A stretch of 64,000 bases of DNA from Octopus vulgaris (Eukaryota): assembly GCA_951406725.2 (NCBI GenBank), contig OX597826.1, positions 8,556,001-8,620,000 on the forward strand, given 5' to 3'. Positions within the stretch are counted from its first letter, which is position 1, and each line of letters starts with the position of its first letter. Below the pieces are notes generated by a model. It saw nothing but the letters and a program-made list of their open reading frames with translations, was not told the DNA's origin and ran no database searches. Below, one piece after another: positions 1,540-43,913 of this stretch. The translations under genes were made by a program, and so were the position numbers.

Positions 1540-2240
1540 GTCGTCAATCCTCTTCATGTTGAATAACAGGGATCTCCATTCGGGTCTATTCTCCGGCAAT
1601 TTAATCCAGTGTGGAGGCACTTGGCCTAGTGGTTAGAGCAGCGGACTTGAGGTCGAGGGATAGCGGGTTCGAATCTCTGGCCGGGCGATGTGTGTGTTTA
1701 TGAGCGAAACACCTAAGCTCTACGCGGCTCCGGCAGAAGGTAATGGCGAACCTCTGCTGACCCTCTCGCCACAACTTTCTCTCACTCTTTCCTCCTGCAT
1801 CTTGCAGCTCACCTACGACGGACCGGCGTCCCGTCCAGGTGGAGGACCAATACGCAAAGGAAACCGGGAAACCGGCCCTAATGAGCCAGGCATGGCTCGA
1901 GAAGGAACAAACAACAACAAATTTAATCCAGTCCTTAATGTTTTCAACCCAGTTTGTTCTAGGTCTTTCTCTCGGGTGTTTACCATTTATCTTTCTCTCT
2001 AGTAATAGTTTACGTATATTTCGTTCTGTTACTATTTGACTAAAGTACTTTAGCTAGCTTTCTTTCATAGTTGAGAATAATGATTATTTTTTGATTGCTA
2101 GTTGTAGCACGTCTCCATTAGTTTTATGATTTGTCTAAGATATTCTTAACATTAGTCTATATGTCCACATTTCAAAAGCTTCTAACTTGTCTGACAAAGT
2201 TTTCGCCAAATTTCATGTTTCTGCACCATACAACAGTGTA
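1540..2240 (-). mobile_element. Decayed RTE-clade LINE ORF C-terminus, interrupted by a SINE
   Basis: Minus-strand translation TLLYGAET*NLAKTLSDKLEAFEMWTYRLMLRIS...LLLERKINGKHPRERPRTNWVENIKDWIK continues after the SINE as LPENRPEWRSL. This is the typical RTE motif order. Confidence 0.85.
1611..1919 (+). mobile_element. tRNA-derived SINE, head C plus tail T1, with 13-bp TSD
   Basis: A box TGGCCTAGTGG, B box GGTTCGAATCT, (CAA)n tail. TSD AATTTAATCCAGT at 1598-1610 and 1920-1932. Confidence 0.92.
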
Positions 2241-2539
2241 GATTAATCTGTGATTTCGCCCTTTGAGATTTTACATCAACCTTCTTCTCGCCTTTTCTGT
2301 AATTCTATCGCCCTATACGAAACATATACACAGCCTTATCCTCGGGGCCGACTAATGCCTTAATTTAGTAGACAGAAACTATGTAATAGCCTGTCGGGCA
2401 CACACACACGCACACACACACACTCACACACACACACACTCATACACACACATGTCTCCTTCAAATTTATAACCCCAGGAAGGACACCTTGTAATAATGT
2501 AATAATGTAGTAGTACAATCCCAGCAGCCCTGATAATTC

Positions 2540-2615
2540 GAGATTGTCATCACAATTAGAATGCTTTTTGATCATAGGTCTACTCAGTCAAGGTTGACCT
2601 TGGGCTAAACAACAA
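2540..2615 (+). repeat. Old interspersed repeat 3' end ending in (CAA)n (family F)
   Basis: TTTGATCATAGGTCT...GACCTTGGGCTAAACAACAA. Related copies at about 3316-3400(-), 5228-5310(-), 5900-5980(+), 6000-6080(-) and 18878-18955(+). Confidence 0.65.
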
Positions 2616-2645
2616 GACATACACCAGCAACAACGACGACGACGA

Positions 2646-2694
<49 letters not shown>

Positions 2695-4351
2695 AACGAC
2701 AGCAACAATAACAAAAGCATCTACAAATTCTGCATCGAATTTCTCTGCCAATGATTTTGTTTTAAATTGGTAATATAACTTCGAAGAGCAAGTTACAATA
2801 GGTCAGCCATGGTAATATTAACATTAAAGCTAAACTCCCTGTGTAAAGCAACATAGAAATAGCATAATTTTCAATTATATAGATATATTATATTAGATAC
2901 AATACAGGTCTATCTAATAAATAGTCAACCAGTATTGTGTAATCAAAATGTCGGCCGCTGCATTCATATATATTCTAAAGCATAACCTGAGAACTAAATT
3001 GATTCCGTCTGTCTCTCTTCTTTTCTCTCTTTTCCCTCTTTCACTCTCTATTTTCCATCTGTAAAACTTCTGTCAATAAGGTATCAGTATTTTGAATTCT
3101 ATTCTTCAAAAGTGTTTAATTTCATGCATGAGATTAGAAGAAAATCTATTAGATTGATTGTAATACATACACAGAGAAAGTGAGGGAGAGAGAGAGAGAA
3201 AGAAAGCGTGCACAACAGACGGCCAATCACTATAGACTCTCGGGAATAAATCTACTTTGAGGTCATTTCAATGTCTGGCTAGGATAAATAGATAGGTCGC
3301 TCGTTAGATATCATTTGTTGTTTGTTTAGCCCCAGGTCAGCTCTTATCGTGCAGACCTATGATCAAGGGGCATCTTAGTCGTGAACATGCTGTTTCCTTT
3401 TCGTTCTTTTTTTTGTCTCGTGTTGTAATTTTCTTTTTACAAATGCAGCGTATCAAAGTATATCAGCAAGCGTGTCTTTTTTCTTTTTTTATCAGATGAA
3501 AGAGTTTGATTTTGAAGAAGGTTTGGCTGCTATTTCTAGCAGTTCGTTTGAAGAAATGGAGGATCACTGCTAACTCGAGTTATCAGTTTTTGTTAATGTT
3601 GTTGTTATTCTTGTTACTGCTGCTGCTGTTGTTGTTGTTGTTGCCTGTTGTTGTTGTTCTTCCCTTCACACAATTCCAATCACTTTATACTGTTGATGAT
3701 GTCCCCGAAGTGAATGACCCGCTATATAGATTCTGACCATTTCAAGATTCCACGGTCGAAGATTGAGTGATGAGGGAATGAGTGAATACATTAGAGACAT
3801 TAACCGTTTCCTTCATAAAAACCCATTGAAAGCTTGAAAATCAGATCAACGGTGCAATATAATAAAACATTCATTAAATATACAGACGTCTCGCTAAATG
3901 CTGTGATGTTGCGTCAGCTGCCCATATTACGCAACACCACGCGAGCCGAGATAACGACGCTGGTGGACGAGTGAGTCATGACCATTAACAGAACAAAGCG
4001 TTGGAGACGAGATCAGGAGGGGGGAAGGGCGAAATTGAGAGGGGGAAGGGCAACACGATTACTTTTCTCCTCTTTTTTTTTTTTTTTTGCCGCATGGGTC
4101 TCCGGTCTTGGCAGGTTAAATGATGGAAGATCATAACATCTTCGATCGGAAAACCACGGACACTTTTAACATATTGCACTCAATTAAAAGGACCCATGGG
4201 CCAGGTGGTAGAGGTGGTGGTTGTGATGGTGGTGGTGGTGGTGGTGGTGGTGGTGGTGGTGGTGGTTTTGGGAAACTTGACTATAGATTAAGTCAATCGT
4301 CTAAGAACACGAATAATTCCTTCAGAAAGCCTAGCAATTTTTGTTCAGATA

Positions 4352-29690: not shown

Positions 29691-29736
<46 letters not shown>

Positions 29737-29739
<3 letters not shown>

Positions 29740-29960
29740 TAATTGTTATCGCCATATTAATATGGCAATCTTATAGATATAAGACTAAAAGCTGTCGCTG
29801 ATTAGCTCCATGAGGCCATCGCCTTAAGATAGCTATATGACACACAAACTGTGTCCATTAGAACCTTCGAACAAGGGAGGTCAGCCGCTTCACACTGCTA
29901 GTCAGACAGCTACAGGCGCGTTTCAGGGTATTTAGAGAGACTTAGTAATTTTAATATTTC

Positions 29961-29963
<3 letters not shown>
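29737..29963 (-). mobile_element. (TA)n-flanked fragment of the hammerhead plus hairpin-domain family (copy Z)
   Basis: Minus strand GAAACGCGC...TGACCTCCCTTG...GACACAGTTTGTGTGTC..TAGCT..AGGCGATGGCCT..AGCTA aligns with 41479-41605 and with 43560-43693 on the minus strand. Confidence 0.65.
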
Positions 29964-30010
<47 letters not shown>

Positions 30011-41218: not shown

Positions 41219-41257
<39 letters not shown>

Positions 41258-41258
41258 T

Positions 41259-41633
41259 TTCCTGGGGCTATAAACGTCACTACCACTGTTCTGTATAGGA
41301 CCCCACACTTGGTTGGCAATTATATGTCACGGTTCCGTAATACTACTATTTATATCTCGCTCAAAGATTTAATCTAGCTTATTTCTCATTTTTCGAGATC
41401 AGCAACAGTTTGTCGTTGGAAAAACTACATAGTATTTTTCGAGCGGATTAACACACGCTGTGGACGGGTAACCACCAAGAAACTCGAGTTCGTGTGTATC
41501 ACGTAAGGCTAGAGATGGGAGCGATGACCTCCCCTTGCAAACACTAATCGGACACAGAATGTGTGTCGTTAGCCAGCTGGAGGAGATGTCTTCCTGGGGC
41601 TATAAATATCAGTTGTACTGTCCTGTATAGGAC
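41259..41633 (+). mobile_element. About 1.1-unit, 332-bp-period element with hammerhead motif (copy X)
   Basis: Terminal direct repeat TTCCTGGGGCTATAAA...CTGTATAGGAC at 41259 and 41591. Hammerhead motif at 41451-41497. Confidence 0.7.
41451..41497 (+). ncRNA. Degenerate minimal type-I hammerhead ribozyme
   Basis: Stem I ACACACG/CGTGTGT, core CTGTGGA (one change from CUGANGA), damaged stem II, GAA, palindromic stem III ACTCGAGT, cleavage triplet GUU. Confidence 0.65.
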
Positions 41634-41932
41634 GCCAATTACCTTCTCTGTCTCAAAAAATAACAATCACCAATTACGTCCCCTTAGATTTTTCTATATG
41701 CTGGTTCCTTTACAAGCAAACTCTCATACAAGCAACATGGACTAGAAACTCATTAAAATAATATGAAATTGCAATATATTCACCAATTTCCCAGTCATGA
41801 TCACCGAAATACGAAACCGGTTGACTTTCATAATATCTTAAGGTATAGATTATATGCATTTTCGTTCTTTTGTTATATATTTTTTCACTTCAACTCACCA
41901 CGTGGGCAAAATCTCTTCAACGAAATTCTCTA

Positions 41933-42872: not shown

Positions 42873-43480
42873 TTGACGTCTATATCTAACATATAGGCTG
42901 TCCATTTTTATAGTGGTCAGTCCTCTAAATTTTGTACATAAAAAATTTTTTAATCTTCGGATTTTTTAAAAATATGCTAGGCACCTGGATTTAATTGATT
43001 AATATCAATTTCTACCCTTATTTAATTTGAAATAAAAAATATATTCTCTAACCGGTAAATTGACTGCTGTAGTTTATCAACTGCAGAGTAATTTCCGACC
43101 TCAGCGCGCCAAAGTGAAGGCATTTGAAAGATACGCATAAATATAATTTGTAGAAGTTTATACATGCTGGATTTTGGTCGAGCGTTCTGTATCTAGTCCT
43201 GGGAATTGTGTTTTGTAAACGACAGACTATGCTGATGATCTTGCAGATGTTTGCGTATCCACATACGTAAATATTAACAAGTGAAACTAATTAGTACATA
43301 GGTAATCATTTTTTTTTATTTCGTATATTTTCATTTGTCTTGCTTATTTTTACACTTCGGTTTTTTGCTGAATTTTTGTTTTTCTTGAGAACACATTCTT
43401 CGTGGAAAATGGCGATTTTGACGTCTATATCTAGCATATAGGTTGTCCATTTTTTAGTTGTCAGTCCTCTAAATCTTGTA
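42873..43480 (+). mobile_element. (TA)n-flanked element with 545-bp-period terminal direct repeat and hammerhead (Penelope-like pLTR or retrozyme-like)
   Basis: 42873-42936 is repeated at 43418-43480. Hammerhead at 43227-43301 and long hairpin at 43052-43096. Confidence 0.75.
43227..43301 (+). ncRNA. Type-I hammerhead ribozyme with intact catalytic core
   Basis: Stem I CTATG/CATAG; CTGATGA; stem II CTTG/CAAG plus 13-bp GATGTTTGCGTAT/ATACGTAAATATT with CCAC loop; GAA; palindromic stem III ACTAATTAGT; GUA cleavage after 43296. There is a U-U mismatch at the base of stem II. Confidence 0.8.
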
Positions 43481-43776
43481 TGTATATATATATATATATA
43501 TATATAATGTAAAGTATAGAAGCCATCTTAACATGGCTAACCACATAGGGGAGGGGGTATTACTGTAGCTTTATAGCCCCTGGAGATCGTCGTCTCCAGC
43601 TGGCTTTAAACACCATTTTAGTGCCCTTGAAGTATTTGCAAAGGGAGGCCATCCCTTCCTCGCAAGCCTGAGTGATACGCTCGGACTAGTTTCGGGATTT
43701 TTGTCCCTTGTCAACGGGCGGTAACCACCAGGTCGCGACCTGGTGGTTACCATGTTAAGATGGCTTCTATACTTTA

Positions 43777-43813
<37 letters not shown>

Positions 43814-43913
43814 CAAGATTTAGAGGACTGACCACTAAAAAAATGGACAGCCTACATGCTAGATATAGACGTCAAAATCGCCATTTTCCACGAAGAATAT
43901 GTTCTCAAGAAAA
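43380..43913. repeat. Nested inverted repeats (outer arms about 100 bp, inner arms about 35 bp, plus a 32-bp perfect palindrome)
   Basis: 43380-43480 pairs with 43812-43913, and 43507-43544 with 43743-43779. GGTAACCACCAGGTCG|CGACCTGGTGGTTACC lies at 43720-43751. Confidence 0.92.
43678..43720 (-). ncRNA. Degenerate minimal type-I hammerhead ribozyme (copy Y)
   Basis: CGCCCG-TTGACAA-GGGA-CAAAAA-TCCC-GAA-ACTAGT-C-CGAGCG. The core differs from CTGACGA by two transitions. Confidence 0.65.

Follow-up and report, generated by a model that had tools for sequence, protein, structure and literature searches.

Hammerhead-bearing repeats of about 355 nt in Octopus vulgaris: probable non-LTR retrozymes with Penelope-type insertion ends

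Results

Three diverged copies in the window

The window analyzed (64,000 nt of Octopus vulgaris contig OX597826.1, assembly GCA_951406725.2, positions 8,556,001 to 8,620,000 of the forward strand) harbored three diverged copies of a hammerhead-bearing repeat, belonging to families c1, c2 and c3. The copies were true homologues, well above chance: profile HMMs built from 22 natural copies, minus the family of the copy under test, recovered copies 1, 2 and 3 from the 64-kb window at E values of 2.1e-39, 1.3e-38 and 2.3e-20, respectively. A sequence-only reading of this DNA had already described them as homologous, and all the motifs it listed for the three copies were found in place. The positions it gave were correct, but the elements were longer than it had drawn them, with a monomer of about 355 nt instead of about 180 nt. 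The features of the three copies were as follows, sites 1 and 2 being the internal termination sites described below.

41255..41637, + strand: copy 1 (family c1), a circularly permuted element of about 1.1 monomer with redundant termini
41451..41497, + strand: copy 1 hammerhead (type I) with the core CUGUGGA, predicted cut after 41490
41482-41489, + strand: palindromic helix III of copy 1
41498..41548, + strand: 3' strand of the long predicted rod of copy 1, including TGACCTCCC at 41525-41533
41551..41567, + strand: hairpin b of copy 1, conserved in sequence, with weak covariation
41570..41602, + strand: hairpin c of copy 1, with an internal loop, covarying
43504-43782: copy 2 (family c2), whole element
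43504..43738, - strand: direct arm of copy 2, monomer positions 303-357 then 1-180
43678..43720, - strand: copy 2 hammerhead, type I and intact, with a U3-A8 core and ACTAGT as helix III
43733..43782, + strand: inverted 5' arm of copy 2, monomer 140-180, terminating at site 1
29736-29966: copy 3 (family c3), whole element
29736..29933, - strand: direct arm of copy 3, with the 3' half of the hammerhead, the rod strand and hairpins b, c and d
29931..29966, + strand: copy 3 inverted 5' arm, covering monomer 203-238 and terminating at site 2 in (TA)n

A short internal deletion lay immediately 5' of the copy 1 hammerhead, and the upstream partner strand of the rod was partly deleted. The direct arm of copy 2 spanned the cut site, predicted between 43684 and 43683, and terminated at site 1 in (TA)n, as did the direct arm of copy 3. 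In the inverted arm of copy 2, a fold-back at a 32-bp palindrome preceded monomer 140-180. Copy 2 was also central in a 172-bp inverted repeat, 93% identical (43380-43544 and 43743-43913), which took in about 130 bp of flank; since this flank also matched L052 and a second nearby place, either a MITE-like repeat or duplication by fold-back could account for the inverted repeat. Whole-window Rfam search and repeat detection were set aside, as matches from microsatellites (to miRNA models in the case of Rfam) overwhelmed them.

Repeat unit and families

Each window copy belonged to a high-copy family of 352-364-nt monomers arranged head to tail, as found by searching the genome (2.8 Gb, 227 contigs). 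Natural dimers measured 354, 357, 364, 352 and 353 nt from cut to cut in five families. In sibling copies, the sequence upstream of the hammerhead was the same as that found downstream, which identifies the unit as a monomer in circular permutation. First-look candidates, which are not copy numbers, amounted to 2,730, 1,333 and 2,222 for copies 1, 2 and 3 (40 scored each); five further families, reached through diverged copies in the flanks, gave 2,084-3,257 such candidates each, again not copy numbers. At least eight diverged families were obtained, 56-77% identical to one another. One locus in an unselected 400 kb, detected with a profile from six families, points to a total number of loci in the thousands, with broad uncertainty. 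Monomers encoded no coding ORF, their AT content ranged from 55 to 62% (GC under 50%), and the longest insert reached 2.1 units. Copies of c3, a young retrozyme family, were 97-99% identical to one another.

Two families lay within 1 kb at L014, L018, L025, L060 and L089, which suggests shared insertion hot spots, and at L186/L193 a c6 copy was nested directly after a c5 copy. Sequencing runs X15-X20, labelled as organisms A, C, D and E, contained c3 words, which raises the possibility that related species share this family. Contigs from three presumed-RNA runs and one unlabelled run covered the monomer, some of them spanning the cut junction, in the unlabelled run alike. A 121-aa frame adjoining a c2 copy (L013:1712-2074, - strand) resembles a fragment of the NAD(P) transhydrogenase beta subunit.

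Hammerhead ribozyme motif

A type I hammerhead was present in each unit, with intact predicted cores in 105 of 129 sibling loci from the eight families (19/29 in c1, 27/28 in c2, 25/27 in c3, then 9/10, 9/11, 9/9, 3/9 and 4/6). Intact c1 cores were mostly CUGAGGA, and stem III of the c3 siblings was ACGCGT. Judging from their letters, two of the window hammerheads are likely inactive: copy 1 through A6U in its core (CUGUGGA), and copy 3, which lacked the 5' half and carried C at 16.1. In the copy 2 core, U3-A8 replaced C3-G8, a variant reported for the hammerheads of Schistosoma Penelope-like elements (PLEs) (PMC4209133). Copy 2 matched Rfam RF02275 (Hammerhead_HH9) at E 1e-6 and 32.7 bits, below the gathering score of 52; the alignment took in the internal loop of helix I and each of the 77 positions of this model, which covers the ribozyme only. 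Copy 1 had no Rfam hammerhead match at E<=10.

The helix III palindrome differed by family (ACTCGAGT, ACTAGT, ACGCGT and ACATGCATGT, with near-palindromes in c4 and c7); palindromic helix III has been described as a mark of dimer cleavage (PMC4209133). With its 6-bp helix I and palindromic helix III, the hammerhead is canonical-like type I, and not a minimal one. Another high-AT repeat, unrelated to the eight families, displayed a hammerhead-like core with a 7-nt helix III at L170 (around 2229 on the + strand, and on the opposite strand) and is possibly another Penelope pseudo-LTR.

Predicted fold and covariation

Plain RNAalifold on 22 aligned copies (three per family, one for c8) gave only 24 pairs, 17 of them with two-sided changes; offsets in the alignment hid the distal rod, which aligned poorly, with 63% of cells paired. 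To sidestep misaligned columns, pairing was also scored in a cognate test that set the 5' arm of each family against the 3' arms of all families, with one copy per family. The distal rod, made of the TGRCCTCCC segment and a partner strand upstream of the hammerhead, reached -26.8 kcal/mol in cognate duplexes versus -15.6 in non-cognate ones (permutation p 5e-5), and the proximal rod with helix I reached -17.8 versus -9.8 kcal/mol (p 5e-5). Hairpins c, d1, d2 and f and helix II gave p values of 0.001-0.02 (0.005 for hairpin c), and stem d 0.048. Hairpin c covaried as proposed earlier, with two-sided change in 5/12 pairs, while hairpin b, proposed alongside it, was mainly conserved in sequence and showed little covariation (1/6 pairs; p 0.054, not significant).

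A 97-pair structure obtained from averaged pair probabilities showed two-sided change in 54/97 pairs and a covariation score of 0.299, versus 0.168 when shuffled and at most 0.123 when slid; this structure was derived from the same sequences on which it was counted, and neither shuffle corrects for relatedness. The measure of further pair types fell below the shuffle mean (116 versus 121.6). Selection on RNA structure, as claimed in the sequence-only reading, was upheld. Five natural monomers folded as circles had z-scores of -3.3 to -8.6, sense being better than antisense in 5/5, and helices I and II of the hammerhead formed in these predicted folds. There, the C-rich motif paired, with bulges, to positions 277-301 of its own monomer, and the C-rich bulge, often unpaired, could be a putative binding site. 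Covariation extended over the whole monomer, for which a single branched RNA fold is predicted.

This fold bears on the proposal that the first 110 nt or so after the cut form an independent domain at the new 5' end, acting in end protection, RT recruitment or translation. Hairpins b and c were the most sequence-conserved part of the monomer after the core, a local hairpin around the CCTCCC segment was possible when the upstream strand was absent, and the partly unpaired C-rich bulge would also suit such a role. Within the predicted fold, however, this stretch is the 3' strand of the rod plus the first two arms of the whole-monomer structure. Its first 60 nt or so pair upstream of the hammerhead, that is, with the 3' end of the same cut monomer, so the stretch is not an independent unit; this pairing covaried more strongly than the local hairpins, and equally conserved stems spanned the rest of the monomer. 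No ORF was found 3' of the domain, so a translation signal would have nothing to act on. A role in RT recognition is still plausible; the insertion ends, however, implicate the hairpins immediately preceding two internal sites, at 165-240 nt from the cut, and not the 5' end. Such an independent domain is very improbable. The TG(A/G)CCTCCC motif itself was kept in c1-c3 and differed in other families (e.g., TGACTCCCC, TATCTCCCC and AGATTCCC), and no Rfam family covered the downstream part in copy 1, copy 2, the c8 loci or the c3 dimer, as had been expected.

HDV ribozymes present P1.1, P4 and the catalytic C in that order, and the downstream part shows a surface likeness to it (CC..GG, a hairpin, then C). 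A second, HDV-like ribozyme is nevertheless hardly credible there, as no HDV-family Rfam match was obtained at E<=10, inspection of the alignment revealed no consistent P1 or P2 across families for a nested double pseudoknot P1-P4, and no insertion ends fell in that part. Reading the TATAAA 3' of hairpin c as a TATA box was dropped, since it was not kept in c3, c4, c5, c7 and c8, and polymerase III A and B boxes were not found consistently when sought by eye against their consensus.

Insertion ends and inverted arms

Insertion ends were compared at 103 loci from five families (c1-c4 and c7), after removal of the query loci and of duplicates L009, L065, L088 and L176. The 3' ends fell at two internal AT-rich sites in 91/103 inserts, about 165-180 nt (site 1) and 216-238 nt (site 2) after the cut, and never at the cut site (0/103); as the loci were the best matches to queries reaching about +140 to +230, earlier 3' ends were unsampled. 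The 5' ends were scattered and insert lengths ranged from 0.57 to 2.11 units. More than half of the inserts (60/103) ran into (TA)n, and 45/103 had an inverted 5' arm.

Inverted arms, which were unselected, terminated at the same two sites in 34/46 cases. Both ends lay in a site in 33 of 43 two-armed inserts, and these were opposite sites in 33/33 (16 and 17), a count for which site windows were widened after data inspection and which leaves 10/43 inserts with an end outside. Window copy 3 obeyed this opposite-site rule; window copy 2, a query outside the count, broke it with site 1 on both arms. The stretch between the two sites measured 46-61 nt and contained hairpin e, and opposite-site ends resemble the one-sided 'tail' of Penelope elements. 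Family c7 had no (TA)n at either end (0/9 and 0/6) yet followed the two-site rule; its Penelope partner may therefore be another one. Target-site duplications, which exceed 4 bp in non-LTR retrozymes when present, were obscured by the (TA)n flanks. The insertion features of the Penelope type, namely an inverted 5' arm, a one-sided tail and a microsatellite target, were thus all present.

A candidate Penelope-like partner

A GIY-YIG search of the genome returned 6,136 candidates, many of them 781-aa frames of identical length. These frames were intact, encoded RT and GIY-YIG domains, and were 96.6-99.5% identical among four copies; an RT+GIY-YIG Penelope-like element, young and abundant, is present in the same genome. 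A CX4CX2C motif preceded GIY-YIG, as described for Neptune and Nematis (PMC8557442). At L121-L125 (e.g., L122:1244-4509), an overlapping frame of 330-480 aa, with no Pfam match, preceded the 781-aa frame. The long 3' region of the element contained internal repeats of about 60 nt and a U3-A8 hammerhead with palindromic helix III, and ended in (TA)n; an optional tail of about 35 nt with a small hairpin was present in 9/28 rows, some rows being one place twice. Further hammerhead-like motifs, with long helix II or III, adjoined PLE copies (L102/L122, - strand, near 3021/5736; L094 and L117).

Beyond the hammerhead core, the 3' region shared no sequence similarity with the retrozyme monomers, so this element is a candidate partner only. 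Three PLE ORFs, used in tblastn, matched at 3/90 retrozyme loci, and at the two inspected, monomer and PLE were set apart by (TA)n arrays or other repeats. The full-length parents anticipated by the sequence-only reading did not appear: no RT/GIY-YIG ORF was linked to a monomer in the 90 loci screened (two of the three tblastn-positive loci inspected, the third being L028), whereas assignment to an autonomous PLE requires such an ORF between pseudo-LTRs.

The copies could instead be solo pseudo-LTRs of an autonomous Penelope-like family outside those found here. Their ends are of the Penelope type, Xenopus retrozymes are homologous to pseudo-LTRs (pLTRs) (10.64898/2026.07.22.740005), and L084, L087, L109 and L126 each held a monomer and a PLE fragment. 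These four were rejected as monomer-linked and read as independent insertions, the fragment at L109 being in opposite orientation and that at L126 separated by other repeats; the screen of PLE loci covered 38 of them. The scarcity of PLE ORF matches at retrozyme loci, with separate insertions where inspected, also argues against solo pseudo-LTRs, as does the sequence upstream of the hammerhead, which wraps into the same monomer. Such an origin is distinctly unlikely.

Discussion

The octopus repeats fit non-LTR retrozymes, having a hammerhead, units within 150-450 bp, no coding capacity and a predicted self-paired monomer. The earlier assignment to a hammerhead-bearing element of the Penelope or retrozyme type was correct. 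The 350-390-bp non-LTR retrozymes of Mytilus (Cervera and de la Pena 2020, PMC7229834) are an especially close animal system. As in animal retrozymes (PMC7229834), each 150-450-bp unit has one type I hammerhead with a short palindromic helix III, GC is under 50%, no ORF is present, copies probably number in the thousands and the predicted monomer is self-paired. Unlike them, the octopus inserts are mostly dispersed, of 0.6-2 units and with inverted arms instead of long arrays, and the eight families share a covarying fold and two fixed internal 3' ends.

Insertion anatomy is that of PLEs, which show 5' truncation, partial tandems, an inverted arm on the 5' side, a one-sided tail of 30-40 bp and a bias for (TA)n targets (PMC4209133; Craig et al., PMC8557442); the octopus tail is longer (46-61 nt). 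The U3-A8 core variant and palindromic helix III are likewise found in PLE pseudo-LTR hammerheads, although these are minimal (PMC4209133) and the octopus ones canonical-like, and octopus monomers differ from PLEs in having no RT or GIY-YIG ORF. Vertebrate retrozymes, viewed as non-autonomous PLE derivatives (10.64898/2026.07.22.740005), also co-occur with PLEs, as monomers, dimers and short multimers. Their link to PLEs is pLTR homology; in octopus, where the search brought up no pLTR homologue, insertion anatomy provides it. No mollusc was sampled in that study. No literature description of octopus retrozymes or of these hammerhead repeats was found, a prior listing in Repbase, Dfam or the PMC7229834 supplement being possible; the text and one supplement of a recent octopus repeat annotation (PMC13282606) contained neither 'ribozyme' nor 'retrozyme'.

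The copies are best explained, with a probability of roughly three in four, as truncated insertions of ORF-less non-LTR retrozymes, likely copied into (TA)n by a PLE reverse transcriptase and endonuclease via circles. Anatomy, families, cores, covariation and the PLE are observed in octopus; the cleavage, the circle and the enzyme are extrapolated from PMC7229834 and 10.64898/2026.07.22.740005. Self-cleavage of a transcript longer than one unit would take place at two hammerheads, which probably dimerize through the palindromic helix III. The rod would bring the monomer ends together and a host ligase would close the circle. Penelope GIY-YIG would then nick (TA)n, and the DNA end would prime at one of the two AT-rich sites, after hairpins d2 and e, with RT proceeding back across the cut junction for 0.6-2.1 units. 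A template switch would give the inverted arm, and the second end would be resolved at the other site, leaving the one-sided tail of 46-61 nt.

Junction-crossing cDNA is also expected from uncut linear multimers. A non-autonomous Penelope derivative copied from linear, uncut transcripts of more than one unit, with the fold selected in linear RNA and no need of a circle, would account equally for junction-crossing copies, inverted arms and tails, and in vitro cleavage failed for 8/9 of the Xenopus dimers assayed (10.64898/2026.07.22.740005). Against linear transcripts, cores stayed intact in all eight families, with compensatory U3-A8 and changing palindromes, the rod closes exactly both ends of the cut monomer, and mussel retrozymes of the same size accumulate as circles (PMC7229834). 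We consider this alternative unlikely and retain circular retrozymes as the preferred reading.

Retrozymes are a known kind of element. What the octopus repeats add, namely the opposite-site rule and a covarying fold of the whole monomer, is relevant to a question raised in a 2020 review, where animal retrozyme repeats are said to show no conserved motif revealing the mobilizing retrotransposon (PMC7761336). The insertion ends give a likely clue to the enzyme moving these retrozymes. The tandem and inverted structures and the microsatellite bias of Penelope elements are likewise named as unexplained by Craig et al. (PMC8557442). Young families, a shared fold, strict ends at two sites and intact Penelope ORFs bring both questions within reach of experiments on one small RNA and one protein. 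An abundant repeat class is also added to the annotation of the octopus genome. More tentatively, and at somewhat less than even odds, the circles may carry a conserved, structure-defined pair of RT start sites, one used per insertion end, and be natural minimal Penelope substrates of 355 nt. If so, such substrates would tie animal retrozymes to the Penelope machinery and expose the origin of the Penelope tail and inverted arm.
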